Of a stretch of 64,000 nucleotides of DNA, positions 852 to 57,485 are shown in pieces. Position 1 is the stretch's first letter, and each line of letters opens with the position of its first letter. The position numbers were made by a program, and so were the translations under genes. Below the pieces are notes generated by a model. That model saw nothing but the letters and a program-made list of their open reading frames with translations. It was not told where the DNA came from and ran no database searches. Source of the DNA: a virus (lineage: Duplodnaviria; Caudoviricetes); IMG/VR virus record IMGVR_UViG_3300027807_000003, positions 1 through 64,000 of that record; one strand, written 5' to 3'.

Positions 852-1013
852 TTTTACGATTAAATCTGGGACATCTGAGGGATCTACAGAGTCCTTTTTA
901 GTTAATGCTTCTGGTTCCTCGAAGGTGACATAGGTAGGCTCGATAAACCGTAGGTAGTCTAACTCCTGCTGCTCCTCCGGTGTTGTTTCTGTAATTAGTT
1001 CTATGGGGTTCAA
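822..1013 (-). CDS. 63-aa ORF, probable N-terminal leader of the MuF gene (frameshift at A9 tract 847-855)
   Basis: ATG overlaps the portal stop (ATGA); ends shortly after GTA AAA AAA AAC. Confidence 0.6.
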   Translation of the reverse strand: MNPIELITETTPEEQQELDYLRFIEPTYVTFEEPEALTKKDSVDPSDVPDLIVKKNSPSSPKG

Positions 1014-4000
1014 GCTTCCTCCAAGTGGATGCGTTTAATACCGTTTTCTCCGTCTTCTACACCAGTTACCCTACCTCGCCATTTGTGCGGGAGGACTACT
1101 TCTTTCTCCTTGGCAGTCTTGGAGAAGTCTTTAATTATCCTACCTGACTTAGCCTGAATCCGGTACTCAACCTGAGTTGACGCTTCGTGGGGGAGCGATC
1201 GCACTCCGGCTTTTTCGGCTAATTCTTCGTATTTACTGGCTTTGGCTGAGGCACCTTTGGTTTTACCAATTAGCACATCAGATTTACTCTGATCACCATA
1301 GTTACTGGTTTCTTTCCCTGTAAGGTCGGTGCTAGTGGAAGTAAAACCATGCATGACAACTACTTTCCCAACTTGGTATTTATCCACATCCTGAGTTGGG
1401 ATGCGAGTATCACGCCTTAGCTCACCTTCGTAAGTGGGTACTTTCTTAAGCGCTTGGTGGAAAATCTTGGCTTGGAGCAGCTGCTGTTGGGCAGTTTCAC
1501 TGGTGGGGTCTACCTGCAACCCACGTAGTGCTCCATTCATCCCAATGTATCCATTACCCGTGTAATGGTTAATTGCTTTAAATTCATGGGGAGTCATATC
1601 GGGGGCGATCGCCTTAGCTTTGTTGTAAGCTTTTACCTCATTCTCATATCGCTGCCGTAGGTAATGATTCTGTGGTAGTTGTACAGCTTCGTGGGGTTTA
1701 AGAGCAAAATTTAGGTGTTTGTCGGAGTTAGCTAGTTCCTGCTCACTAACAGAAAGTGGCGCATCTAAGTCCCCAATTTTAACGGGGTTCCCTTTCTTAA
1801 ACTTAGCTTTATTTCCAGCTTTAGCCTGCTTTAGTGCTTTCTCGGACTCCCTCAGTTCTGCTTCTGCCTTGGGAATGTCAACTTCTTTTAAGCGTTTGTA
1901 AACTGCTGCTTGCTGTTGAGTATTGACACTCTTACCCATTTCCTCTAACTGAGATTTTTTCAGTTTCAGGTTTTTGGCAGCTTCTTTAAACCTCTGTTCA
2001 TGATGCTCAATTGTGGCCGCAGGTTCTTCCTGTACCTGCGGATTTTCTTGCTGCTGTTGAGCAGGGGGTAATTTCTGTTTCCTGATCCGCCTAATAGCTT
2101 CACCAAAACTAGGCTTTGGTAGTTCGTCTTTTTGCTCTGATGGAGGTTCAGCTATTTCTGTTGGTGGTACCTCTGGAGGTTTCTCTGGGGGTTGCTCAGG
2201 TGGTTTCTCTTTTTTCTTCTTACCCGGCTTCCCTTTTCCCGGCTCAGGTGGTTTCTCCGGAGGTTTCTCAAATATTTCTGGTGGACTCTCTGGAGGTTCA
2301 GGGGGTTTTACTGGCGCTTTCTTCCTTACCTTTGGCTCAATCTTGGGAGCTTCTTGTACCTTTGGCTTAGGTATGGGATCTCCCTGTCTCTGGCTTAAAG
2401 CTAATGCTCCCGCAGCACCACCCACAGCTAAGGCTCCTACACCACTCACGGTAGCGATCGCAGCTATGGATTTAGCCCTTTTGTGCCCCTCATCTTCTTG
2501 GTGTAACGCTGAATGATGGGTTGTTTTCCGTAAATATTTCCCGCCTTTCACCCGGTGATCATATACCCAGTGGTACCCCGGTGGTGCATTTACCAGAGAA
2601 TCTGTCTTTGTCTCCCCTGCCCACTGATAAGCCAGTACAGATGCCTGCATCCCTGGCTTAATCCCAAAGTTGTACACCCCGTACGGACTAGTAAATTGCC
2701 CAAAAATCTCTTGTTTCTGGTTAGTCTGCCACCGATCTAGGTTTACTACCCCTTCAGGAAACCCAGTCTCAACTACTCGCAGCACTTCAGTGTCGCTCAA
2801 ATTCTCCAATTTAATCGGAACCACCACAGTCCCATTTTCCAAGTCAGGGATTTTCACCCCACACCCACAATCACCCACCCCATCTTGGCGATAGCTCTTA
2901 AACTCATCTGTACCAACAGGTTCTACTCCCCCAAATCTTTCTAACCCAGCATGGTAAACAAACGCTTGCTTTACCTCTTGGGGAGAATTGAACCCTAAGA
3001 AATACTTAGGCTCATCTACCATCCCTGTGTCAGGGTGGATTTGCCGCACTTTGTACCCATTGGGTGCAGAAGTTAAGTTTTTCTCATTTACATACACATC
3101 AAAAGCTTTACCATCAGGTGCGTCCCCGTATGACCCCCGAATGTGCCCATAAGACGATAGCATTGTCTTCCCGTGGGAAAATCGTTTATCCCCTGGGGCA
3201 TGAGTAATCCCAATAGGTACATTATTCCAGTGAATTACCCGCTTTGGACGGGTAATTTCCTGCCTATCTTGGATATCTTGAAGCAAAGTATTCCCATAAA
3301 ATGACGAGTCGCCGCGATCGCCCCCACCACCTCCGTCATCATCCCCGTCATCCCCGTCATCGTCCTCAAAATCCTCCCCCTCTGTATCTGCCGAATCATC
3401 ATCGTCATCCCCGAATCCTGATTGCTGTTGTTGGGCTTGCTGCTGCTGCTTCTGAAACTTAGCCCAAGCTTTAGCATCAAGATTGGTTTCCATGCTGAAA
3501 GTAGACCCAAACCGGGAATTTCTGATTTCTTCCGGGGTAACTACCCCCGCTTGCAGGTAGGCGGTGTCGGTGGTGGCTTGGGTACCCCGTAAGCTTGCTT
3601 CTTCCTCTTCACTCAAGTGCTTGATTGAGGGGAAAATTAAATCCCATTCGTCTGGTTCTTGCCCCTTGGTGGGACCTTCCTGAGATAAGAAAATATATCT
3701 CCCAAGTACTTCTAGCTTGGGTTTCCACTCGGTTTCTTGAAATTCCCTTACATCATTTGCCCAGTTATTCTCCTCACTCTCCCCAGTGGCTCCCAACCCT
3801 GATGGTGATTCCCCGAACAGGCGATCATGGGGAATACCTGTCGCGCCAATAAAAGAATCGCGCTGCTCTCGGTTAATGTCCGACACCCCCGACACGTTGC
3901 GGCTAGGAAAATCAATTGCTTCACCGTCAGCATCTACCGCTAGTCCCCCAAACACAGAGGTCATCATCCGCAGCAGGGTGATGTGATCCTTCAGCAAATT

Positions 4001-4795
4001 AACTTCCTGGTCTTTGACCATCTTGGCCAGACCTTTGAGTTTATACACAAACACCGAGGCATCCTGAAGAATCGCTCCCGATGCCTTTAACCCCGTTTTC
4101 CAGTCGCGGTACTCCTCCCAGAGGGTATCAATCATGGAATGTCCCCACCCTTGGTTAAATTTCATCTGGTCAGGGGTGGCATAATTCCCAGAATCAAAAC
4201 GTAAAACTCGTGATTTATGAATTAGGTAAACTGATGCCCCATCTACTACGTCTGCAAATTCCCGTAGCAGGTCATCAGGCAAAATCAACTGATAAAATTC
4301 GGGATCAACTGCACTATACCCCGTCGTCACAAATGGCTGAATTTTCCACCTATCTAGAACCATTAAGCGATCTATCCGCTTAATTCTCTTGGTATTAACT
4401 GGCTTGGTGGCAGGTTGCCCATCTTCCACCACCATAATAATTACGGCACCGCCATAAATATTAGCTTGGGTCTGAGCATCAAAAAAATGCTCCTTCACCC
4501 TCAATCGCTTCTGTTCTTTTTGGAACTCCCGAACCAATTTATTTTTCTTGTTCTTATCTTCTTCGGTACCCAAAGACAACCGCCAACCCTTGACTGAGGC
4601 ACTTTTAGGTCTGGCTGTAACGATCCGATTAATAATTGGGACACCGGCAATATTCTCAACAATATTCTTGGGCCACCGTATCACCAACCCCGGAATAGTG
4701 TACTCCACGCGATCGCGATCCGTACCCATCCCGGTCATCGCATTACGAAGGGTAGCGTCGTATCTAATTTGTTCGTCTAAGGTATCTTCATCCAT
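1010..4795 (-). CDS. DUF1073-family phage portal fused to an InPase-like domain, a hydrophobic helix, a Pro-rich/coiled-coil linker and a VIP2/ExoS-type ADP-ribosyltransferase
   Basis: Portal motifs MTGMGTDRDR, IHKSRVLRF, GIPHDRLFGESPSGLGATGESE; InPase YGHIRG..DGKAFDVYV..DEPKYFLGF; ART YTGNGY.GMNGALR, R..STS..EKE. Confidence 0.85.
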   Translation of the reverse strand: MDEDTLDEQIRYDATLRNAMTGMGTDRDRVEYTIPGLVIRWPKNIVENIAGVPIINRIVTARPKSASVKGWRLSLGTEEDKNKKNKLVREFQKEQKRLRVKEHFFDAQTQANIYGGAVIIMVVEDGQPATKPVNTKRIKRIDRLMVLDRWKIQPFVTTGYSAVDPEFYQLILPDDLLREFADVVDGASVYLIHKSRVLRFDSGNYATPDQMKFNQGWGHSMIDTLWEEYRDWKTGLKASGAILQDASVFVYKLKGLAKMVKDQEVNLLKDHITLLRMMTSVFGGLAVDADGEAIDFPSRNVSGVSDINREQRDSFIGATGIPHDRLFGESPSGLGATGESEENNWANDVREFQETEWKPKLEVLGRYIFLSQEGPTKGQEPDEWDLIFPSIKHLSEEEEASLRGTQATTDTAYLQAGVVTPEEIRNSRFGSTFSMETNLDAKAWAKFQKQQQQAQQQQSGFGDDDDDSADTEGEDFEDDDGDDGDDDGGGGGDRGDSSFYGNTLLQDIQDRQEITRPKRVIHWNNVPIGITHAPGDKRFSHGKTMLSSYGHIRGSYGDAPDGKAFDVYVNEKNLTSAPNGYKVRQIHPDTGMVDEPKYFLGFNSPQEVKQAFVYHAGLERFGGVEPVGTDEFKSYRQDGVGDCGCGVKIPDLENGTVVVPIKLENLSDTEVLRVVETGFPEGVVNLDRWQTNQKQEIFGQFTSPYGVYNFGIKPGMQASVLAYQWAGETKTDSLVNAPPGYHWVYDHRVKGGKYLRKTTHHSALHQEDEGHKRAKSIAAIATVSGVGALAVGGAAGALALSQRQGDPIPKPKVQEAPKIEPKVRKKAPVKPPEPPESPPEIFEKPPEKPPEPGKGKPGKKKKEKPPEQPPEKPPEVPPTEIAEPPSEQKDELPKPSFGEAIRRIRKQKLPPAQQQQENPQVQEEPAATIEHHEQRFKEAAKNLKLKKSQLEEMGKSVNTQQQAAVYKRLKEVDIPKAEAELRESEKALKQAKAGNKAKFKKGNPVKIGDLDAPLSVSEQELANSDKHLNFALKPHEAVQLPQNHYLRQRYENEVKAYNKAKAIAPDMTPHEFKAINHYTGNGYIGMNGALRGLQVDPTSETAQQQLLQAKIFHQALKKVPTYEGELRRDTRIPTQDVDKYQVGKVVVMHGFTSTSTDLTGKETSNYGDQSKSDVLIGKTKGASAKASKYEELAEKAGVRSLPHEASTQVEYRIQAKSGRIIKDFSKTAKEKEVVLPHKWRGRVTGVEDGENGIKRIHLEEA

Positions 4796-6922: not shown

Positions 6923-7477
6923 ATGCTAAAACACTCCTCCCCGTACATTTCCTATGTCGATGATTTTGTCAAAGCCGTTAATCAACCATTTGTCCAAACC
7001 CTCGGCATTTCCCTCACAGATATCCGTGATGATGATATTGCCCCTGGCGATCGCTATGGGATTATCACCTTTACCGAAGCTCGACCAGATCGAGCAACTA
7101 ATATTCGTGGGGGAATCGAGCAGTGGGCGATCGCTATGGACGTAATTATTCGCCAAGGATGTGATGGCTATATGTCTGGGGAGGCAGAAAAGTTGAAGCT
7201 ATTCTTGGATCTGCACAATATATTCCCCTCCGAAATTCGGGAAGGATTGCCAACAGGATGGGCAGTTAATTTAAGTTTGAATGGCTCATTTAGATTTAGC
7301 ACCCAAACTTCCCACAAACCAGCAGGAAAACCCACATTTGTTGACCCCTTACCGCAGACACAAACCCAATCTCCCAAATATAATTTTATTATCACTACCA
7401 CCACTTCATTTATTGCTACTGTGTGGATTGGTGTGAATTACGAAGGACAGCAATACATCCCTTATCCCTTAACTTAA
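6923..7477 (+). CDS. Hypothetical protein (possible tail completion protein)
   Basis: 184-aa ORF in the operon; function from position only. Confidence 0.65.
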   Translation: MLKHSSPYISYVDDFVKAVNQPFVQTLGISLTDIRDDDIAPGDRYGIITFTEARPDRATNIRGGIEQWAIAMDVIIRQGCDGYMSGEAEKLKLFLDLHNIFPSEIREGLPTGWAVNLSLNGSFRFSTQTSHKPAGKPTFVDPLPQTQTQSPKYNFIITTTTSFIATVWIGVNYEGQQYIPYPLT

Positions 7478-31926: not shown

Positions 31927-32097
31927 TTAGAGGTATTATAATAGAATAATGCCTCTATAATTACTTAAAAAGATTGATATTATTACCTATTTCTGTTACT
32001 ATTAATAAGGTATTGTTCAGAGAAACCCGTCTGGTCGCCCGTTCTTTTACGGGTGACTTTTTCATGTTTTTAACTATCTAAATAATAGGAGATTATT

Positions 32098-35000
32098 ATG
32101 TTTGCAATCACCACAGCGATCGCTCAATCACTGCTGTCCGCTACACCAAAACAAAGATGGGAGAATAACAAAAAAGCTATAGAATCCCTCAAGCTTGGGG
32201 GGAATATAGCTGATTTAGCTTTATTTAATGGTTGGGGTTCCATCCCCGAAGTATTTAGCTTAAATCCTGAAAAAGGATGGGCGGCTAATGCTCAAGCAGA
32301 GCTAAAGGTACTTTTAGGTGAAGAGGGGTATAACAGTGCTGCCGCAAGTATTCTCAACGCTCACTACACCTCCCCCGAAGTTATCTCAGCTATGTGGAGA
32401 ATGGTTGAGCGATTAGGTTTTGCTGGTGGCAGAGTTCTAGAACCAAGCTGTGGAACAGGGATGTTCTTTGGCTTGATGCCTGAAGATATGAGGGAAAGAT
32501 CTAAGTTGTTCGGCGTGGAAATAGACCCCATACCAGCACAGATCGCCCAAGCTTTGTACCCCAAGTCACGCATATATAATTATGCGTTCCAAGATGTAAA
32601 ATACCCTGATGGGTATTTTGATCTAATTATTGGTAATGTGCCTTTTGGGTCTTATGGTGTGCATGACCCTAAATATAATTTCTTAAATACAGGTATTCAT
32701 AATTATTTTCTAGCCAAATCTTCTGATTTAGTTCGCATTGGTGGGCTAGTTTGTATTCTTACCTCTAACTACACCTTAGATGCTCGTGGTTCCCAAGATT
32801 TCCGGGAATGGTTAGGTGGTAGACAAAAAATGAAATTGTTAGCGGCACTTCACCTGCCCATTGGAATATTCAAGCAAATATCCAGAACAGAGGTCAGCCC
32901 ACTGCTGCTGATATTCCAGAAACTTGCACTTAGCGAGGGAACTAACTCTAAAGATTGGGCAGGGACTAAAGAAGTTTTGATCAAGCCCCATGAATGGAGC
33001 GATGATAACGACTCACCACAGGTAGAAGCTGACCTTAATCAGTGGTTTGTAGGTGAATTCCAAGGTAGACGCTTAGACTACGGATATAGTCAGCTTGCTA
33101 AATCCACCCCCTACTGGGCAACGAAGAAAGGATACGATGACCCCCACAAATTGCTGGGAAGACCAGGGGTGAATAAGCTTTACGGGAATGGATTTGCTCT
33201 GTACGAAGATGGGAGAGACGTAATTGCTGCCCTTGATGGATTCCCCCTACCTGCTGTCTACCAACCTGCGGAAGTAATTCAGGAAGTGCTACTAGTCCCT
33301 CCATCGCTCTTATCCGTGAAGGACGGATCACTATGCCTTCACGAGGGGAAAATCTACCAGCGGGTAGGTGGGAGTTTGCAGTATACAAATGTGGAACAGC
33401 TAAGGGTGAAAGCCTTCTGGCAGTTACGGGAAGTTTTGCTACAAACCATTGAGGCTCAACAGTCTGGTGACGATGACACCCTGCTACAGTGCCAAGCTGA
33501 TTTAGCCACAGAATACCGCCACTTTACCAAGGAATGGGGTCTAGTCAACAGTAAAGAAAATATCAGTAAGCTAGGTGTTGACCCTAATTACTTCTTGGTG
33601 CGATCGCTAGAAAAGTCTGATAAATCTTTAGCTGATATCTTCTACAAGCGAGTATGTCGCACTTACTCTGTGGGTGAAGTGGATAATTCCAAGGATGCCC
33701 TAATTCACTCACTCAACTCCAAAGGTGTACTCGATCTAGAGTTCATGTCACAAATCAGTAATATTGACAAAAATGAACTAGTTAGACAGCTAGATGCTGA
33801 AGATGTGATTTACTGGAATCCCACAGATACCCAGTGGGAGTTAAAGGCAGATTACCTCAGTGGTAATATTCGCCAAAAACTAGAAGCTGCGAAAGCTGCC
33901 GAAATCACCAAAAATATTCAAGCACTAGAAAAAGTCCTGCCCTTGGCTATGCTTCCCGATGCCCCAGATCATGTTAAGTTCCTTTGCTTGGATAACTTAG
34001 GAGTGAAATGGGATCAGCTATCAGATGATGAGCGTGACAAGATTCTGGGTAAGAAAATCTACGTCACCATTGGAACAAGCTGGATCAAACCTGATATCTA
34101 CACTCAATTTGCTAGAGAAGTTCTGAATATTAAGGTGAAAATAACCCACACAGTTGCTGCTAATACCTCATTTTGGAGTGTAGATGGGCAAAACACAGAT
34201 AAGCAGCAGTTTGGTACAGAACATTTAAGCAGTACACAAATTCTGTCTAGGGGATTAAACCAGCAAGATCCAAAAGTGATAATCTATAACACTGATGGTA
34301 GTGGGGTTAATTACTCACTTTCTGCTGAAGCGACAGAGGAAGCTAGGGGTAAGTTAACTATCATCAAAAACGCCTTCAAGGAATGGATTTGGGGCGATCA
34401 GCAGAGATGCATTGAACTGTGTACCTACTACAACACCCACATTAATGTTTACGCCGAAAGGAAGTTTGATGGTAGTTATCTACATTTACCAGGGTCTAAT
34501 CCTAGTATCAAACTCAACCCTTGGCAGTTGAGCGCGATCGCTCGTATTCTCAACAATCAACGAGTGATGCTTGCTCATGATGTAGGATTTGGTAAAACAT
34601 TCATCATGATCACCGCTGTTATGGAGTGTCGGCGATTGGGGTTAGCCAGAAAACCAATACTAGTAGTGCAAAAGGGCAACGTCGCTCAGGTAGTGAACGA
34701 CTTTAAGCTACTTTATCCCTTGGCTAATTTACTAGTCCCTGACAAGTTAGATGCTGGGGGACGGAAATTATTTACTGCTTCTATTCTCACGGGTGACTTT
34801 GATTGTGCAATTGTCACCCACCCCCAGTTTTTCACCTTATCGCTCTCAGAAAACTACCAAGTAGCGTTCTTAAAAGAACAGGTAAACATCCTGACAGAAT
34901 TGATCAAAGATGTAGACGACCGGGGAACTACTAAACATCTTCAGCGCCAAATTAGAAATATTGAAAATCGCATCGAGAAGGTAACTGCTTCTCACCGCAA

Positions 35001-37323
35001 AGATAACCATATTGAGTTTGACGGGCTAACTGATTTTCTGTTAGTTGATGAAATCCAAGCATGGAAAAACTTGGAAGTTATCACCAAAATGTACAACGTG
35101 CGTGGCTTACCCAGTGGCGGATCTCAGAGAGCGATCGACTCTTGGATGAAAGCTTTGGTCGTACTGGGTGATTTAGTTGGTTCTGCCAACAAAGTTAAAG
35201 GTAAGTTAGTGGGAGCAACAGGTACAATCCTGAGTAACTCAATGGCTGAGTTATTTACTTGGATGCGAATGTTTCAGTTACCAGAACTCAAGCGATTAGG
35301 GATTGAGAACTTTGACGAGTGGGCGAGTATGTTCGCTGAACCAACAGCAACCGCCGAAATAACGGCCGGAGGAAAGGTGAGAGTTATTACCCGCTTTAGG
35401 GAATTTCACAACCTTCAAGCATTACGAGGGGTGATGTCACAATTTTTAGATTTAGTGACAAATAAAACCACAAACAACGGGTTAAAACGCCCTGATGCCG
35501 AATTTATTGATGTTGTTACCCCACCTAGTGATACTCAACTTGAGTTTTTACGGGAAGCTTTGAGCAGGGCTGAAGCGATATCTAAGGGTATGGTTCCCCC
35601 TGATCAAGATAATATGCTGAGTGTCACGTCTGATTTAGTTAAGTGTTCCCTCAGTCCCAAGCTAATCGGCTATAACGAGGAAGCCCTAGATAGCAAAGTG
35701 CATGAATGTATCTGGAACGTGTGGCAAATATGGCAGGCAACCACACCGATCAAAGGTACGCAGTTAATATTTAGCGATGGTGGTACACCTAAACCAGACA
35801 AGTATAATGTGTACCAATATATCAAAAATATGCTCATAGCTTTGGGTATACCCGATCGCCAAATCGCTTTTATTCATGATTATGATGGGCAAACCAAGCG
35901 GGCTAAGTTGTACAGGATGATTGAATCTGGGGAGATTCGCATCATCCTCGGTAGCACAGAAAAACTCGGAACTGGTTGTAATGTCCATCAGCGAGGGATA
36001 TGGGCAGCACACCACCTTGATGCACCTTGGCGTCCTGCCGACTTAATCCAACGGGAAGGGCGATCAATCCGCCAAGGTAATGGACAGCTAATTGGCAAAA
36101 TCCTCACTAAAACATGGGTATTCCGCTATGTAGTGGAACGACTAGACGCACTCCGCTGGCAAACACTCCATACCAAGCAGCAGGCGTTTACTCAGTTCTT
36201 GGATGGGGTAGAGCTAGACTCAATGGAAGACGTAGGCTCAGTGGATGCCTACTCCTACGCTCAAGTAAAATCCTTGGCCACTGGGAACCCCCTGCTTATA
36301 GAGGAAGCCAATCTACGAAACCAGCTAAACGCCCTAATCATTCAACAACGGGCGCATGCTCGTCAACAGCTAGGGATTGAGTACACCCTGACCGATTGGC
36401 AACGACGGGTTGAAGATACCCAAGCACGGCTAAAATTCCTCAAGGATGATTTACGCCTTATCCACAATATTAATGATGTATCTAATACCGAAGTAGCCGA
36501 AATAAATATCGCTGTCACAGACTTCTTGGAAAACCCGTTGTATGAAAATACCTACCTTGGGGATTATCGTGGTCTAGAGGTATATGCTAAAAAATGGCAG
36601 TCAGGGGCTATTGATGCATCCCTCAAAGGAAACCTAACTTACTCGTTACCTTGGTCTTACGGCAAAGATAGACCACTGATCAAACTAAGCAAAGTAAACC
36701 CCGCTGGTAGCTTTAATAGCTTAATTGAGGAACTAAAATTCTTCCAGCAAATCTTAGAGAGTAACCTAGAGACAGCAAAAACCGAGTACGATCGCGCCAA
36801 ATCAATTAAGGGACAAGAGTTTCCCCGACTAGAAGAACTCAACAGTATTAAGCAGCGATTACAAGAAATTGATTTACTCTTAGCCGAGACAGCGATCATA
36901 GTTGAGGAAGAAGCTAAATCTAGTAAGGCTAATTCTGATGATGAAGAAGAGAACCACAGATATTATGATTTTGATGACAAATCAACCGTAGGAAATTGCG
37001 ATATCGACCCTGCGATCGCACAACATTTACTAGAAAGAGAACCGGTAGAAGAATGGCTAAAAGAGATATCAGAAATAGTTAGCAAATATTCAGGATTTGC
37101 TGAGAAAATTGAGCCAGACGATTTACCTGAATTAGAGCTAACCTCTATATCATCAAAACAAGCTGCTAAGAGGAATAGAGCTAAAAAGGTAGGTAAAATA
37201 GAACCCAATTTTAAACAACTACAACTAATAGTGGAACCCGAAGAACTAGACCCTGTGCTAGAATTATCTAAGGCGATAAATGGGATACTTGAATTATTCG
37301 ATTATCGTCAAGAAAGTTGTTAG
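32098..37323 (+). CDS. DarB-like N6-adenine methyltransferase / SNF2-type helicase fusion
   Basis: NAHYT, LEPSCGTG, GNVPF; YLSGNIRQKL; HDVGFGKT, VDE, ATGT.LSNS, HHLDAPWRP, QREGRSIRQGN, KSLATGNP. Confidence 0.9.
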   Translation: MFAITTAIAQSLLSATPKQRWENNKKAIESLKLGGNIADLALFNGWGSIPEVFSLNPEKGWAANAQAELKVLLGEEGYNSAAASILNAHYTSPEVISAMWRMVERLGFAGGRVLEPSCGTGMFFGLMPEDMRERSKLFGVEIDPIPAQIAQALYPKSRIYNYAFQDVKYPDGYFDLIIGNVPFGSYGVHDPKYNFLNTGIHNYFLAKSSDLVRIGGLVCILTSNYTLDARGSQDFREWLGGRQKMKLLAALHLPIGIFKQISRTEVSPLLLIFQKLALSEGTNSKDWAGTKEVLIKPHEWSDDNDSPQVEADLNQWFVGEFQGRRLDYGYSQLAKSTPYWATKKGYDDPHKLLGRPGVNKLYGNGFALYEDGRDVIAALDGFPLPAVYQPAEVIQEVLLVPPSLLSVKDGSLCLHEGKIYQRVGGSLQYTNVEQLRVKAFWQLREVLLQTIEAQQSGDDDTLLQCQADLATEYRHFTKEWGLVNSKENISKLGVDPNYFLVRSLEKSDKSLADIFYKRVCRTYSVGEVDNSKDALIHSLNSKGVLDLEFMSQISNIDKNELVRQLDAEDVIYWNPTDTQWELKADYLSGNIRQKLEAAKAAEITKNIQALEKVLPLAMLPDAPDHVKFLCLDNLGVKWDQLSDDERDKILGKKIYVTIGTSWIKPDIYTQFAREVLNIKVKITHTVAANTSFWSVDGQNTDKQQFGTEHLSSTQILSRGLNQQDPKVIIYNTDGSGVNYSLSAEATEEARGKLTIIKNAFKEWIWGDQQRCIELCTYYNTHINVYAERKFDGSYLHLPGSNPSIKLNPWQLSAIARILNNQRVMLAHDVGFGKTFIMITAVMECRRLGLARKPILVVQKGNVAQVVNDFKLLYPLANLLVPDKLDAGGRKLFTASILTGDFDCAIVTHPQFFTLSLSENYQVAFLKEQVNILTELIKDVDDRGTTKHLQRQIRNIENRIEKVTASHRKDNHIEFDGLTDFLLVDEIQAWKNLEVITKMYNVRGLPSGGSQRAIDSWMKALVVLGDLVGSANKVKGKLVGATGTILSNSMAELFTWMRMFQLPELKRLGIENFDEWASMFAEPTATAEITAGGKVRVITRFREFHNLQALRGVMSQFLDLVTNKTTNNGLKRPDAEFIDVVTPPSDTQLEFLREALSRAEAISKGMVPPDQDNMLSVTSDLVKCSLSPKLIGYNEEALDSKVHECIWNVWQIWQATTPIKGTQLIFSDGGTPKPDKYNVYQYIKNMLIALGIPDRQIAFIHDYDGQTKRAKLYRMIESGEIRIILGSTEKLGTGCNVHQRGIWAAHHLDAPWRPADLIQREGRSIRQGNGQLIGKILTKTWVFRYVVERLDALRWQTLHTKQQAFTQFLDGVELDSMEDVGSVDAYSYAQVKSLATGNPLLIEEANLRNQLNALIIQQRAHARQQLGIEYTLTDWQRRVEDTQARLKFLKDDLRLIHNINDVSNTEVAEINIAVTDFLENPLYENTYLGDYRGLEVYAKKWQSGAIDASLKGNLTYSLPWSYGKDRPLIKLSKVNPAGSFNSLIEELKFFQQILESNLETAKTEYDRAKSIKGQEFPRLEELNSIKQRLQEIDLLLAETAIIVEEEAKSSKANSDDEEENHRYYDFDDKSTVGNCDIDPAIAQHLLEREPVEEWLKEISEIVSKYSGFAEKIEPDDLPELELTSISSKQAAKRNRAKKVGKIEPNFKQLQLIVEPEELDPVLELSKAINGILELFDYRQESC

Positions 37324-51586: not shown

Positions 51587-53998
51587 GTGAAATCAGTTGA
51601 TCGCTTAGTAATGGACAGGGCTAGAAAAGCACTCCCATTATTAAATAAAGTTAAAAGTATTAACAAGAATTCACCCCAAATAGGAAAAGCGATTAAATCT
51701 TTCGCCGACAAGCTATGGAAACCACAAGCAGGACCGCAGACTCAGGCATTTAACCATCAGGCAGATGAACTGTTATTTGGGGGAGCAGCAGGAGGCGGGA
51801 AAGCTCAACCATGCTACTCCATAGAGTGGGCGTTTGAGAATCTTAAATCATTTACGGTGGATCAATATAGTAGTGTACTGTCTCAAATACCACAAGAGAT
51901 TAGAAACAAAGACAGCAAAATACTAATGGGTGATGGACGCTGGAAATCGCTCGCTGAGATTGTAGTTGGCGATCGCATCATGAATCCCAGTGGTAGAACT
52001 CAAGAAGTATTACAGGTACATGAGAGAGGAATACTACACCTTTACCGGATTACCTTTGCAGATAAGACCACAGTGGAGTGCAGTGGTGATCATCTGTGGG
52101 GTTTTTGGAACATCAGGCCTCCTACTGTAAAAACTATTGACTGGGGTGTTAGCTACATTTATAACACAAGAGTTAAAAATACGGAGTGGTTGTTTGAACA
52201 GTTTAACCAGTGGGGGAAATTTGCTATTCCCATCAATGATGCACTTAATTATACTGATAAATCCTTAAATAGTAGATGGGAAATCGCACGAAGATTGTTT
52301 GATGCTCATGGGGAAATCACTCAAGACAATGTTTTTATTGGGACTTTTGGTGACGATTGTGACTTTGTGACTGACTTAGTGCGATCGCTGGGTTACATGG
52401 TTAGACACGAAGAAATCGACAGCGATCGCACTAAGCTTGTTGTCGAAGGTAATGATAAATGGAAGTTATTTAGCCTTCCCTGTAAAGTAGAAGCAGCGAA
52501 AGAACATGAGCCAAATATCTGGGTGGGTAAAAGAATTGAGAATATCGAGGAAATTGGCTCAACCTACTGTAGATGCATAACAGTTTCTAACCCAAATGGT
52601 CTGTACATAACCGACGGATACAACGTCACCCACAATTCAGCCCTGCTACTGATACTCGCTGGTCTATCCCATACTCAGTCAATCATTTTCCGCCGTGAAT
52701 ACTCTCGCCTAAAAGATATCATCGAGAAAAGCCGTAGGATGTTTGGCGAATTAGGGAAAAGCGCCAGGTATAACAGTACTGATAAGATTTGGCGCTTACC
52801 CAGTGGAAAGACAATTGAATTTGGAGCGATTCAGTACGACCAAGATATGGAGAACTATCGCGGTCGTGAGCATGACTTAAAGGGATGGGACGAATTAACC
52901 GAGTTTACCCAAGAAATATACGAATTCGTCAATACTTGGAACCGATCGCCCAACCAAGTCCAACGCTGTAGAATCGTCGCTACTTGTAATCCACCATCCA
53001 CAGAAGAGGGGCAGTGGATTATTGATTACTGGGGACCTTGGTTAAAGGAAGATTACGAAGGTGTACCAGCACTACCTGGGGAAATTAGATGGTTTGCCCG
53101 TATTGGTGACAAAGACGTAGAACTGGAGTCAGGCGATCGCTTTTCCCACACCGATGAAGATGGCAGAACCGAGCAAATTATTCCTCGTTCCCGCTCATTT
53201 ATCCCAGCTAGGCTAGAAGATAATGCCTACCTGATGAACACCAACTACCGGGGGGCATTGCAACGATTACCTGAGCCACTGCGATCGCAGCTACTCTATG
53301 GTAGTTTCAAGAAAATAAAGACCAAAGACCATCCGTGGCAGGTTATTCCCTCGGAATGGTACGATCAAGCGGTAGCCAGATGGACTGAAAACCCACCCGC
53401 ACCACAATCGCATTTAGGTGTAGACGTAGCCAGAGGTGGTGAATGTAATTCAGTTATTGCTAGCAGATACTACAACTGGTTAGCCCCACTAATTGTCATT
53501 CCAGGGACGGAAACCCCAGATGGTGACACACTGGCGATGGAAATATTAAAACATCGCCGCCATAATAAGGTAGAAATCAGGATTGACGTACTTGGTGTAG
53601 GTTATTCTCCCTATGATTCACTCAATCGCTTGAGAGTAAAAGAAGTAGTAGCGATCAATGGTAATGCGAGCACAGGGGAGAAAAAAGATAAATCAGGAGT
53701 ACTAGAATTCTTCAACCTGCGATCGTTTATGTATTGGCATTTTAGGGAAGCACTAGACCCTAAAAACCATTACGACATCATGTTACCGAATGATCCTCGA
53801 CTGCGAAGGGAGATATTAGCTCCGCGATGGGAGTGCACAAAAGGTAGAAGTGATTTTGGGATTATTCGGGTTGAGAGTAAAGAAGATATAATTAAGCGTA
53901 TTGGTGGTGGGAGTCCTGATAGAGCAGACGCTACGGTATATGCGTTCGCTGATTTAGAACTTGATGTTACTGATAATTATGATTGGTTGAGGGGATGA
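51587..53998 (+). CDS. terL: Terminase large subunit containing an intein
   Basis: GGAAGGGK|S Walker A, WDELTEF, TCNP, FIPARLEDN, GVDVARGG, SPDRADA. Confidence 0.93.
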   Translation: MKSVDRLVMDRARKALPLLNKVKSINKNSPQIGKAIKSFADKLWKPQAGPQTQAFNHQADELLFGGAAGGGKAQPCYSIEWAFENLKSFTVDQYSSVLSQIPQEIRNKDSKILMGDGRWKSLAEIVVGDRIMNPSGRTQEVLQVHERGILHLYRITFADKTTVECSGDHLWGFWNIRPPTVKTIDWGVSYIYNTRVKNTEWLFEQFNQWGKFAIPINDALNYTDKSLNSRWEIARRLFDAHGEITQDNVFIGTFGDDCDFVTDLVRSLGYMVRHEEIDSDRTKLVVEGNDKWKLFSLPCKVEAAKEHEPNIWVGKRIENIEEIGSTYCRCITVSNPNGLYITDGYNVTHNSALLLILAGLSHTQSIIFRREYSRLKDIIEKSRRMFGELGKSARYNSTDKIWRLPSGKTIEFGAIQYDQDMENYRGREHDLKGWDELTEFTQEIYEFVNTWNRSPNQVQRCRIVATCNPPSTEEGQWIIDYWGPWLKEDYEGVPALPGEIRWFARIGDKDVELESGDRFSHTDEDGRTEQIIPRSRSFIPARLEDNAYLMNTNYRGALQRLPEPLRSQLLYGSFKKIKTKDHPWQVIPSEWYDQAVARWTENPPAPQSHLGVDVARGGECNSVIASRYYNWLAPLIVIPGTETPDGDTLAMEILKHRRHNKVEIRIDVLGVGYSPYDSLNRLRVKEVVAINGNASTGEKKDKSGVLEFFNLRSFMYWHFREALDPKNHYDIMLPNDPRLRREILAPRWECTKGRSDFGIIRVESKEDIIKRIGGGSPDRADATVYAFADLELDVTDNYDWLRG
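51803..52636 (+). mobile_element. Class 3 intein (278 aa) in the TerL P-loop with a degenerate LAGLIDADG remnant
   Basis: Starts AQP, block B DHLW, block F CRCITV, ends VTHN/S. Confidence 0.88.
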
Positions 53999-54059
53999 CT
54001 TATGATGACTGAAGTGGAAGAACAAAATCAGCAAAGAGTAGATAAATTGTGTCAGAAAC

Positions 54060-55150
54060 TGCTATAATCCAAACGAGATGCGGACTCACATAGAAGATCA
54101 AAAGCGTCCTGAACAAATTGGGACGCTTTTGATTGCCACCCACTAGAGCGATCGCCTATAATCAATTCTAGTTAAGTCTATAATGTAAGTGTGTTATCAT
54201 GGATACTCAACACTAATCTGTCCCTAACTACAGGGATGCACCTAAAGATTAGTAGTTGAGTATTTTTTATTTGAAAATCGCCTACAATATTAGTACCAAC
54301 CTCCCCGTTGGTGCTATTTCCATATCTGTCGGTGTTCAACACTAATTGTCCCTAGTTACAAGGGATGCAAGGAAAGATTAGTAGTTGAACATTTTTATTT
54401 GTATGAATATTCGGTTTACCGTAATCTAGAGTTCGGTAAACCGAACAAGCATCAAGATCGCCAAACAAAAACACACCTTACTGTGGCTGGTAGATAACAG
54501 TAAGGTGTGGTGCTTAACTGTCAAAACCTATTTCCGTTATCTTAGTCGATCTTCCAAAAAAGTTGTACTCGGAGGAGCGATCGCACTATAATCAGTCCAG
54601 TGCCAAACGGTGAGGATTGGAACGAATAGCCAATGGTCCTGTAAATTCTCCTCCTTCAACATTGCCCTAGACTCTGCCAAGATCTGGGGCGATTGTTTTG
54701 ACGTGAGTTATAATCAGTCGAGATGGAGATTCAATCATGATATTATTACATCCTCACCCTCAGTTTTTGTGACTGAGGGTGTTTTGTTTTTGAGCCAAAT
54801 CGACTAAAATGCAACCAGGTTGCATATATCGATACTGTCGCTCCTAGTTGCTGATGCCTGGGAGCCTTTTTATGCGAGTGCTATAATATTCAAGTTTGGT
54901 AAGATTCATTTTTATGTCCCCTCGCTCTCAGCCATTAGGTTCTGGGGGCGATTGTTTATGATGGGCTATAATATTTCTGTTGCTGATAAAACAGCACGCA
55001 AAAAAAGATTTGGGTCTTGTTATCACCTCTGATGTCAAAATCAGGGGTGATTGTTTATTGACTTGTAGTCTGGAGGAGCGATCGCCTATCATGGTTTCAC
55101 AAATGTAATTTACCCCCGCCCATCTATATAGAATAGATGGGTATTTTTTT
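54060..55150. ncRNA. Tandem array of about 10 putative small-RNA genes (-10 box, 20-60 nt unique segment, terminator hairpin)
   Basis: -10 boxes at 54063, 54157, 54283, 54587, 54709, 54805, 54882, 54967, 55087 (+) and 54544 (-), each followed by a hairpin and a T-rich tail. Confidence 0.7.
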
Positions 55151-55197
55151 GGAAGTTTGGTTATATTTGTGGTGTCCAACCGTAAAGCACAACACTT

Positions 55198-56202
55198 ATG
55201 GCTTCCTATAACCGCTTCTACAAAATCCTGTCAATTGATGGTGGTGGTATTCGGGGGATAATCCCCGCAGCGATCCTAAAAGAGATTGAGCGACGGACCA
55301 ACAAAAGAATCTACCAGTTGTTTGACCTTATTGCTGGTACTTCTACTGGAGGAATACTGGCTTTAGGCTTAACCACACCTAGGGAATTCAATAAAAATGG
55401 AAATTATGCACTATATTCAGCGGAAGATTTACTGAATTTGTACATAAATCAAGGTGCGGACATTTTTGCTAAATCCAGAACTTTGCCATCATTTATTCCG
55501 GACCAATTAGCTAGCTTGTTCTGTCCCAAGTACCGGGATACTGGCAGAGACAATATTTTACATAGCTACTTTAAAGATGCATTTCTTGTAGATGCACTAA
55601 CTAAAATCTTCATTACCAGCTACGATACCGTTGGACGTGTCCCAGTTTTCTTTACTAATGATGTTGAACAAATAGGGGTTAGCTATAAAAAGCTATTTAA
55701 AGGAATAACAATGAGGCAGGCAGCGATCGCTACTTCTGCCGCTCCCACTTTCTTCCCACCATTTGAATTAGCTGATTTGTCTTTGGTTGATGGTGGAGTT
55801 TACGCCAATAACCCAGTCCACTTGGCTATAACTGAATCAATCATTAACAGCAAAGGTAGAGAAACCAGAACTCTAGATGATTTAATGGTTGTGAGTCTGG
55901 GGACCGGATCGCTCACCAGACCTTATCCCTACAATAAAACTAAAAACTGGGGAGCACTTCAATGGGTCGGTCCATTAATTGATGTAGCTTTCGACGCACA
56001 GTCAGAGGCGATCGCATCTCAACTGGAACAAATGTTTCCTAGCGATCGCTATTACCGTTTTCAAGCCCTATTGACTACTGCTGATGACGACATGGACAAT
56101 ACTTCACCGAGAAATATTTCAGATTTACTTGAAGTAGCCGATCAACTGATTATTTCTCAGGATAAAAATATAGATCGCCTTTGCCAGAATTTGATAAGTT
56201 AG
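55198..56202 (+). CDS. Patatin-like phospholipase
   Basis: DGGGIRG, GTSTG, SAAPTFF, DGGVYANNP, SLGTG. Confidence 0.95.
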   Translation: MASYNRFYKILSIDGGGIRGIIPAAILKEIERRTNKRIYQLFDLIAGTSTGGILALGLTTPREFNKNGNYALYSAEDLLNLYINQGADIFAKSRTLPSFIPDQLASLFCPKYRDTGRDNILHSYFKDAFLVDALTKIFITSYDTVGRVPVFFTNDVEQIGVSYKKLFKGITMRQAAIATSAAPTFFPPFELADLSLVDGGVYANNPVHLAITESIINSKGRETRTLDDLMVVSLGTGSLTRPYPYNKTKNWGALQWVGPLIDVAFDAQSEAIASQLEQMFPSDRYYRFQALLTTADDDMDNTSPRNISDLLEVADQLIISQDKNIDRLCQNLIS

Positions 56203-56885: not shown

Positions 56886-57119
56886 TCAACTACCATTTCT
56901 TGTTTTTCCCCGTAGCTGTTTGTTCACCAACACTTTGTTATACTCCTCAGCCATAGCTCCTAGTCCTTTTGCAAGAACTAACCTATAGAACTCCGCCCTG
57001 GTATATCCTTGGGCCTCAGCCATTTCGTGGATCTCTCCAAGGAGGGGTGTTGGGACGGAAAAGCTAATCTTGGTCATACCTCCCTTTTTTTCTTGCTCTA
57101 GCTCTTGGTCTTCAGTCAT
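56886..57119 (-). CDS. CopG/RHH-like regulator
   Basis: KISFSVP..LL.EIHEMA...GYTRAEFYR; AAGGAG RBS. Confidence 0.75.
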   Translation of the reverse strand: MTEDQELEQEKKGGMTKISFSVPTPLLGEIHEMAEAQGYTRAEFYRLVLAKGLGAMAEEYNKVLVNKQLRGKTRNGS

Positions 57120-57257
57120 TTGTTTTTCTCCTTAGCTTACGTTTACCCTACATATTCCCCACAGCCCCCACACAGAATCTATAGTGTATGCTGTAGAGTA
57201 TATCCCATCTTTTTGGGAATCTACCAGAGGGAAAGTTGAGGAAGGGCACAATAAATT

Positions 57258-57485
57258 ATGACACCACAGCAGTACGCGGAAAAATATGGATTAGCCCCAG
57301 AAAAAGTTTCTGAGGAAATAGCGATAGACCTTGGATCGTACTTTCGTTACAACTCACGGGGAAAACGTAGGCGGACACCGTCCCCGCAGATTTTAACTAT
57401 TTGTCAATTACTGGATTTTATTCGCCAGAACGGACTTGAGCCACCAACACCAACTATCCCCGACCGGCGGACGTTGACTTTATAA
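57258..57485 (+). CDS. Small Cro-like/HTH regulator, divergent from the RHH gene
   Basis: MTPQQYAEKYGL....RRRTPS pattern. Confidence 0.6.
   Translation: MTPQQYAEKYGLAPEKVSEEIAIDLGSYFRYNSRGKRRRTPSPQILTICQLLDFIRQNGLEPPTPTIPDRRTLTL

Follow-up and report, generated by a model that had tools for sequence, protein, structure and literature searches.

The antisense RNAs sar of phage P22 and c4 of phage P1 are single phage RNAs that block ribosome-binding sites, each with a defined complementary target in the same element. Here we describe a different arrangement, a row of ten predicted short transcription units at positions 54060-55150 of the first 64,000 nt (the window) of IMG/VR record IMGVR_UViG_3300027807_000003, a virus of the Caudoviricetes (Duplodnaviria). 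Three described systems invite comparison with it. In Nostoc sp. PCC 7120, NsiR1 is encoded by a tandem array of 12 identical or near-identical direct repeats, each a small RNA (sRNA) gene of ~60 nt with its own promoter; the promoter is of the DIF1-type heterocyst class and some of the copies act on translation-initiation regions (PMC9045159). The PeSLs of T4-like phages consist of a stem-loop terminator followed by a host-type promoter, and lie in plastic accessory regions where close relatives differ by insertions and deletions (indels) (PMC4122927). PasA and PasA-2 of E. coli prophages have a terminator hairpin, a conserved 3' end and a diverged first ~40 nt, with expression and target data; the Pas genes are single and dispersed, and are stated not to be tandem duplicates (10.64898/2026.05.13.724894). 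The accessible literature on phage and cyanobacterial sRNAs and arrays yielded single phage sRNAs and the NsiR1 array, and no phage array of unlike promoter-terminator mini-units.

The stretch occupies a gene-free interval of ~1.2 kb (54000-55197) between the large-terminase gene and a patatin gene. It is well supported that it holds a strand-specific array of nine -10 boxes, each paired with a hairpin resembling an intrinsic terminator and assembled from shuffled modules. With one further unit on the minus strand, this gives nine plus-strand units and one minus-strand unit, each composed of a -10 box and a hairpin with a T-rich tail. The plus-strand -10 boxes begin at 54063, 54157, 54283, 54587, 54709, 54805, 54882, 54967 and 55087, and on the same strand each of them is followed, at a distance of 52-107 nt, by one of nine hairpins that end in a T-rich tail. 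Seven of the 39 plus-strand TATAAT copies in the genome fall within 54063-54972 (0.8% of the genome), where none of the 16 minus-strand copies is found. Among plus-strand copies outside long open reading frames (ORFs) the share is 7 of 17, and when 1.1-kb windows were slid along the genome, five to seven TATAAT copies were reached only at this locus. When the ten predicted units were folded and compared with 200 shuffles each, z was ≤ -2.99 in seven, with 0-1 of the 200 shuffles equally stable. The plus-strand RNA of every plus-strand hairpin (9/9) is predicted to fold at least as stably as the minus-strand RNA, and for units 5, 7, 8 and 9 the gap is 5-8 kcal/mol because of G-U pairs; this bias points to RNA-level structures on the plus strand, not DNA cruciforms.

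These results bear on a preliminary description of the same DNA, in which the stretch was presented as tandem mini transcription units without a credible ORF. All of the -10 boxes and hairpins reported there were located in the sequence, including the minus-strand hairpin (54472-54509) and its TAAGAT, as were the motifs CTCCCC, CTCCTCCT and TACCCCCG. The longest frames are 83, 70 and 65 aa, and none of six frames of 47-83 aa in the stretch matches a PHROGs family. The sequence statistics and the strand-specific predicted RNA hairpins agree with tandem units; their transcription is a prediction. The element (G)ATCGCC, which had been noted ahead of several of the -10 boxes, is the cyanobacterial palindrome HIP1 (octamer GCGATCGC) and is not unit-specific, as it occurs 191 times genome-wide against ~1 expected from base composition; three copies lie inside the stretch (54148, 54577 and 55078). 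HIP1 followed by TATAAT was considered as a general promoter of this phage and rejected: of 382 HIP1 sites (both strands), 11 have a TA...T box downstream, and three of these 11 are the array's own. Rfam covariance models (including NsiR1) gave seven matches at E-values up to 10, all far under the gathering scores, and no tRNA was found in the stretch with ARAGORN. The features are as follows.

51587-53998, plus strand: large terminase subunit, 803 aa, matching PHROG terminase families; upstream flank.
54039-54068, plus strand: promoter-like match of unit 1, 10 of 12 positions.
54063-54141, plus strand: unit 1; TGcTATAAT with the -10 box at 54063-54068, 5' segment of ~22 nt, hairpin 54097-54133 with tail TTTTGATTG; z -5.2.
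54148-54273, plus strand: unit 2; HIP1 at 54148-54155, TATAAT at 54157-54162, hairpin 54201-54265, T tail to 54273; z -3.1.
Promoter details of unit 2, plus strand: -35 box TTGCCA paired with the TATAAT at 54157-54162 (together 11 of 12 positions), extra TATAAT at 54179 and TATCAT at 54195.
54277-54401, plus strand: unit 3; TACAAT at 54283-54288, 5' mini-hairpin 54295-54312 (loop CUCCCC), main hairpin 54331-54393, T tail; z -3.5.
54410-54445, no strand assigned: palindromic hairpin, 12 bp and perfect, without a T tail, between unit 3 and the minus-strand unit.
54462-54544, minus strand: minus-strand unit; TAAGAT -10 box at 54544-54539, hairpin 54509-54472, T-rich tail 54471-54462; z -3.45.
54577-54704, plus strand: unit 5; HIP1 at 54577-54584, TATAAT at 54587-54592, hairpin 54658-54697 (family B, see below); z -1.7.
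5' segment of unit 5, ~60 nt, plus strand: GAGGA pairs with UCCUC.
54709-54791, plus strand: unit 6; TATAAT at 54709-54714, 5' segment of 34 nt, canonical terminator 54755-54781 with tail TTTTGTTTTT; z -3.0.
ATG at 54736, plus strand: frame in unit 6; GGAG, 8 nt, ATG, 11 codons, stop in the terminator loop.
54805-54873, plus strand: unit 7; TAAAAT at 54805-54810, 5' segment of 23 nt, hairpin 54840-54865 with tail CTTTTTAT; z -1.0.
54882-54961, plus strand: unit 8; TGcTATAAT with the -10 box at 54882-54887, 5' segment of 28 nt, hairpin 54922-54951 (family B, three G-U pairs) with tail TTGTTTAT; z -1.4.
54967-55061, plus strand: unit 9; TATAAT at 54967-54972, 5' segment of 43 nt, hairpin 55022-55051 (family B) with tail TGTTTATT; z -4.5.
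55078-55150, plus strand: unit 10; HIP1 at 55078-55085, TATCAT at 55087-55092, 5' segment of 20 nt, terminator 55118-55142 with tail ATTTTTTT; z -3.1.
55198-56202, plus strand: patatin-like phospholipase gene (Pfam E-value 1.8e-26); downstream flank.

Similarities among the units are confined to short modules. In units 2 and 3 (family A), the -10 regions agree at 11 of 12 positions and the ~60-nt 3' hairpins are ~86% identical; the intervening 40-45 nt are unalignable. In the outer stem of this family two pairs are changed on both sides and one pair is changed to G-U, and the other differences lie in the loops and a bulge. Units 5, 8 and 9 (family B) have a common 3' arm and tail, with two pairs compensated between units 5 and 9. 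These compensatory changes suggest that the signals are maintained rather than decaying. Three pairs of units (5 with 6, 8 with 9 and 2 with 10) have 11-30 nt in common around their -10 boxes. Overall, modules of 11-36 nt recur scattered across the array, and the 5' segments of 20-60 nt are all different. The junction formed by a hairpin, its T tail, 14-36 nt and the next -10 box occurs eight times, and once more between unit 10 and the patatin gene, where a TATATT box lies ~19 nt past the unit 10 terminator. Since a terminator followed by TATAAT also stands ahead of ordinary genes at 31937, 56793 and 78250 (similar in layout, not in sequence), the signals of the array look like the phage's normal working signals. 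The hairpin of unit 1 could be merely the terminator of the terminase operon.

Part of the array belongs to sequence families that are also found in the intergenic DNA of the presumed host family, as recurrent matches in host genomes indicate. A BLAST search of the stretch (E ≤ 0.01) against 201 genomes of the Nostocaceae (the family of the Nostoc linckia genome discussed below) gave matches in 31 genomes that were recurrent at two places only. Of the 43 matches listed, 21, from 15 genomes, lie on the 3' arm of unit 2 with its T tail, and seven, from five genomes, on the palindrome at 54410-54445; the best of these seven has 95% identity over 40 nt. The 3' arm and tail of unit 2 correspond to the right end of a dispersed palindromic host element resembling a transposable element of the miniature inverted-repeat type (MITE). 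A 22-nt motif from this element is exact (22/22) in unit 2 and present as a variant in unit 3; it has 4-12 copies per genome in all four host genomes tested, where the reversed control has none. When both terminal inverted repeats of the element were looked for, the inner part of the right end was present, and the outer left and right ends were absent from the phage copies. In the Nostocaceae the element is a palindrome of ~130 nt, with conserved A/T-rich ends and a variable, often GC-rich interior.

We tentatively read the stretch as an array of genes for short non-coding RNAs that was assembled from shuffled terminator/promoter cassettes. The ten units would then be autonomous promoter-terminator mini-units with predicted RNAs of 52-107 nt, placed in an accessory island ahead of a patatin 'moron' gene. 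Host RNA polymerase would read each unit from a near-consensus -10 box, usually without a -35 match, and each transcript would be released at its intrinsic terminator. The array would owe its growth to composite terminator-then-promoter junctions that were duplicated and shuffled locally, and to the addition of host-type palindromic repeats. Instead of being by-products, the RNAs would work in trans, as regulators, decoys or sponges; we infer this activity, as we do the transcription of the units. That the -10 boxes are near consensus, that stems are maintained and that the indels described below are unit-like together suggests that the signals are kept in working order. A more specific and rather doubtful version is that of a phage-borne multiplex sRNA cassette, in which nine independently transcribed RNAs with interchangeable promoter and terminator modules and nine different 5' ends, gained and lost as units between near-identical phages, would reprogram the host or fight co-resident elements via short imperfect pairing or decoys invisible to BLAST-level searches.

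Several results, together with the target searches presented further below, weigh against the array being a set of sRNA genes. The whole-unit folds of units 5, 7 and 8 are no more stable than those of shuffles (z -1.0 to -1.7). A generic two-hexamer sigma-70 scan gave five sites against 6.3 +/- 2.1 in shuffles, since most units lack a -35 match (a usable -35 was found in only two). A strict terminator scan accepts only three of the hairpins (1.1 +/- 0.9 expected), and a looser one peaks at seven here with the same peak in one coding region. Host-type dispersed repeats make up parts of the array (HIP1 in three copies, the palindrome, and units 2 and 3 at their 3' ends), which fits passive accumulation equally well. 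Contigs from four DNA runs were aligned to the region; one run is identical throughout and may be the source, a second is identical where covered, and the variants are single low-depth contigs that serve as hints only. One variant (X3, depth ~2.5) skips 54136-54229 (94 nt, with three other letters instead), so that unit 2 is left without its promoter, its 5' segment and the 5' arm of its hairpin. A further 14 nt are missing from it at 54961, and with them the -10 box of unit 9; single units would therefore be dispensable. The same variant has six listed substitutions at 54400-54433, in the spacer after unit 3 and in the palindrome loop (four in the loop and none in stems), and a one-base insertion that returns the inner stem of unit 3 to the unit 2 form. 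Another variant (X4) lacks the 5-nt loop of the unit 10 hairpin. These differences suggest that units are gained and lost while stems are kept.

Conservation is limited to such close variants. The closest relative phage found (G001), a 119-kb record with direct terminal repeats within a Nostoc linckia assembly, has a terminase of 59% identity; there is no TATAAT-dense ORF-free stretch anywhere in it, and ordinary ORFs follow its terminase gene, which again speaks against a conserved array. A search with the C-terminal part of the terminase found 20 viral, 16 metagenome and two genome loci, and by a lenient test (stop-to-stop frames of 60 aa) an ORF-free gap was present in none of the 36 viral and metagenome loci. 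The preliminary description had proposed that related phages be compared for gain and loss of units: unit-level indels do occur among the near-identical variants, but neither G001 nor the 36 terminase-linked loci carry the array. The stretch has no match among 50,697 phage records, and within its own genome it matches only itself, along with the self-match of the palindrome, with no copy elsewhere. No relatives of the patatin protein were found among viral contigs. Patterns based on the family A scaffold were absent from viral contigs and from genome contigs, and the unit 6 hairpin pattern was absent from viral contigs. The family B tail followed by TATAAT gave 20 matches, all HIP1-free and unrelated, which is about the number estimated by chance. 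No homologue outside the near-identical variants was found, and no curated family fits.

Almost as likely as an array of sRNA genes is a cargo-less, PeSL-like stack of terminator/promoter cassettes and host hairpin repeats at a hyperplastic junction, the RNAs of which would be by-products. Recombination of short cassettes and palindromic insertions would have left nine terminator-then-promoter junctions with scraps of sequence, and their net effect would be to insulate the late operon and to provide the patatin gene with a promoter, or they would have no role at all. This explanation accounts for the missing conservation and the missing targets: a related phage does without the array, no targets were found, and units come and go between near-identical variants. 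It also agrees with the eight successive junctions in which a -10 box lies 14-36 nt past a hairpin, the last terminator being followed by the TATATT box and the patatin ORF, with the like layout flanking ordinary genes at 31937, 56793 and 78250, and with the short modules scattered among the units. The host motif at the 3' ends of units 2 and 3 (4-12 copies per genome in 4/4, BLAST matches in 15 of 201 genomes) and the palindrome (5 of 201 host genomes) would be further material of this kind, and PeSLs are described as small composites of terminator and promoter through which indels arise in hyperplastic regions (PMC4122927). However, PeSLs are well-conserved copies flanking ORFs, whereas the array units share only 11-36 nt and have no ORF between them, and this phage is not T4-like. 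If two cassettes recombine, a single one should remain and not nine separated by unique spacers, and the persistence of these nine is not easily explained by such a stack. The -10 boxes are moreover unusually near consensus (seven are exact TATAAT), and the compensatory changes that keep the stems suggest maintenance, not decay.

The remaining explanations give the units a particular partner or product. It had been proposed in the preliminary description that the unique segment of each unit pairs across the ribosome-binding site (RBS) and the start codon of one particular gene, whether of the host, a plasmid or a rival phage, so that the whole would be a multiplexed silencing cassette; we now consider this improbable. 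The 5' segments of units 6 and 8 do read on the opposite strand as a Shine-Dalgarno (SD)-like motif, a spacer and an ATG, and C/U-rich motifs lie in or near single-stranded parts of units 3, 5, 6, 8 and 10, but the RBS-like mirror image is found in only two of ~10 segments and the ATCATGAT core of unit 6 is itself a palindrome. No antisense match of any unit 5' segment was found in the rest of the phage. The reverse complement of unit 6 (28-mer, ≤ 3 mismatches) occurs in none of the 201 Nostocaceae genomes, and the 24-mer of unit 8 (≤ 3 mismatches) occurs in two of them, each time with three mismatches that destroy the ATG. Unit-level BLAST against 151 genomes gave four and five weak matches, none recurrent in antisense; the only recurring pair was a sense-strand likeness of the unit 9 5' segment to a conserved host coding gene. 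When duplex energies were calculated against 146 phage start regions, unit 6 alone of the ten units beat all 40 shuffles, and the other nine were matched by 4-32 of 40. The host tests covered 246 start regions in 400 kb of the genome of Nostoc linckia, from the presumed host family, with gene starts guessed, and short imperfect seeds would escape them; seven of nine units were no better than 12 shuffles. With 100 shuffles, the minimum energy of unit 6 in this sample was reached by two (thus above 98/100) and that of unit 7 by four, and for these two units start regions were not better paired than mid-gene windows (p = 0.25 and 0.997, respectively). As nine units and several measures were counted, the scores of units 6 and 7 are unconvincing. 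The proposed antisense action on translation-initiation regions thus found no support in the phage or in the Nostocaceae genomes sampled, and complementarity to start regions, the check set in that description, showed no overall excess above shuffled controls in either sample. The structure is real and unusual, whereas the proposed silencing function is unsupported: nothing found shows that the predicted RNAs silence particular genes, and long antisense pairing to RBSs is not supported. We regard it as still less probable that the real products are very small proteins, namely the 21- and 23-aa minus-strand micro-ORFs behind GGGGA and GAGGA and the 11-codon frame of unit 6, or that the arrangement resembles a type I toxin-antitoxin system. 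SD-like motifs do stand at suitable spacing before an ATG at 54909 (minus), 54738 (minus) and 54736 (plus). Such frames are present in only two or three of the ten units, however, and a minus-strand micro-ORF in only two; the minus-strand frames cross plus-strand promoters and terminators, hairpin stability favours the plus strand, and the translations, on inspection, are not hydrophobic as in type I toxins. The frames of 47-83 aa have no family match, and the micro-ORFs are too short for family tools. Least probable of all is a link to CRISPR, in which the units would either mimic CRISPR repeats (RNA anti-CRISPRs) or serve the phage's Cas12p-like nuclease as stand-alone guides. A CRISPR array and a Cas12p-like gene are indeed found in the same phage, 25-28 kb away, but the phage's CRISPR repeat aligns to the stretch with a score of 15 against a shuffle mean of 16.7 (177 of 200 shuffles at least as high), which leaves the earlier "CRISPR-like" analogy without a basis in sequence. 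The variable part of the array units lies 5' of the hairpin, which is the opposite of the order in Cas12 CRISPR RNAs. The unit hairpins matched no regularly spaced repeat family in the 201 Nostocaceae genomes, where the recurrent matches are dispersed elements.

Two of these subjects yielded observations of their own. Read in sense, the unit 9 5' segment (54989-55030) is 84-86% identical to a coding region conserved in the host, in two of the genomes; this likeness may be coincidental or the trace of a captured gene fragment. At 79711-82830 of the full record lies a type V CRISPR-Cas locus. Here, a protein of 626 aa encoded on the minus strand contains a Cas12f1-like TNB domain (Pfam E-value 2.3e-6) and matches the Cas12p structure 9jfs (E-value 3e-32), and beside its gene lie ~11 copies of a 36-nt repeat with a period of ~74 nt (82060-82830). 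Cas12p is described in a preprint as a phage-borne miniature Cas12, with hosts unknown (10.1101/2025.01.20.633832). After the regular CRISPR repeats, ~800 nt (82800-83600) are taken up by irregularly spaced degenerate units, many with HIP1 and ending in the repeat's heptamer, which could be trailer decay or something else.

The complete virus record, of which the window is the first 64 kb, is 134,332 bp in length, is rated 100% complete with linear ends and comes from a moss metagenome. Based on the abundance of HIP1 and on the relative in the Nostoc linckia assembly, the element is most probably a phage of a HIP1-rich cyanobacterium of the Nostoc family. In that relative, a 125-nt AT-rich spacer just past the terminase gene (7066-7190 of its locus) contains repeated CGTAATT/ACGAATT words and a TATAATCAGT box, 10 nt of which are also present at the -10/start regions of units 5 and 6. 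The array is preceded by a 49-kb block of plus-strand genes and lies at the edge of an accessory island. A replication origin or terminus at this site was considered and rejected: the cumulative GC skew climbs steadily across it. The 803-aa terminase has a weak Hint/homing-endonuclease-associated match at residues 108-160, under the Pfam cut-off, and the terminase of the relative is 440 aa in length, which suggests that the insert is intein-like. Beyond the patatin gene are two minus-strand genes, one of which encodes a CopG-like repressor (77 aa); this gene is divergent from a 75-aa plus-strand ORF (both at 56886-57485), and the two may form a regulatory switch or a toxin-antitoxin-like pair. 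Elsewhere in the genome, a 1261-aa minus-strand fusion protein (1010-4795) unites a phage portal with two further domains, one inorganic-pyrophosphatase-like and the other, at the C terminus, an ADP-ribosyltransferase of the exoenzyme type, and a 1741-aa protein (32098-37323), preceded by two TATAAT boxes and a terminator, contains methyltransferase (Eco57I-like) and helicase (ResIII/Helicase_C) domains. In a second ORF-free stretch, 1.8 kb long (95210-97018 of the full record), there are four or more related hairpins that end in T-rich tails and stand ahead of a GTTACARG-type motif common to them, alongside numerous TTCCGGGAA-like palindromes. This stretch could serve as an origin or a regulatory region, or be a further RNA array.

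If the stretch is an array of sRNA genes, a row of nine that differ from one another would make an unusual regulatory payload, because in the literature found prophage sRNAs are described as dispersed singles and the one tandem array is that of Nostoc. Its promoters and terminators would also be a compact, naturally occurring parts set for filamentous cyanobacteria, and the array would be a test case for the origin of new sRNA genes from shuffled regulatory cassettes and host repeats. If it is only a pile of cassettes, PeSL-like plasticity would be documented outside the T4-like phages.

Each of the known systems resembles the locus in part. Like P22 sar and P1 c4, the units are predicted to give short phage RNAs with their own promoter and terminator; those RNAs have a complementary target in the same element, whereas none was found in this phage. 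The dispersed MITE-like repeats of the Nostocaceae are represented by the 3' arm and tail of unit 2 (22/22), the variant in unit 3 and the palindrome with its host copies, but the phage copies are without the outer A-rich left end and the terminal part, have interiors of their own and are preceded by -10 boxes. Among the other three systems, units 2 and 3 are comparable to PasA and PasA-2 in being phage-borne, with a common 3' end and a diverged 5' part, although the Pas genes are single and dispersed and the array is tandem and known from sequence alone. NsiR1 shares with the array the tandem arrangement of short units each with its own promoter (predicted here), and Nostoc is the host lineage suggested by the phage's nearest relative. 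In contrast to NsiR1, the units are phage-borne, have unlike 5' segments and plain -10 boxes, and give no Rfam match at gathering score. The array is like PeSLs, compared by description, in lying in a plastic accessory region where close relatives differ by indels. It differs from them in that PeSLs flank ORFs as conserved copies spread over many regions and here nine units stand back to back with no ORFs; the two also have in common, at eight array junctions, a terminator stem-loop directly followed, within 14-36 nt, by a promoter (predicted here from its -10 box).

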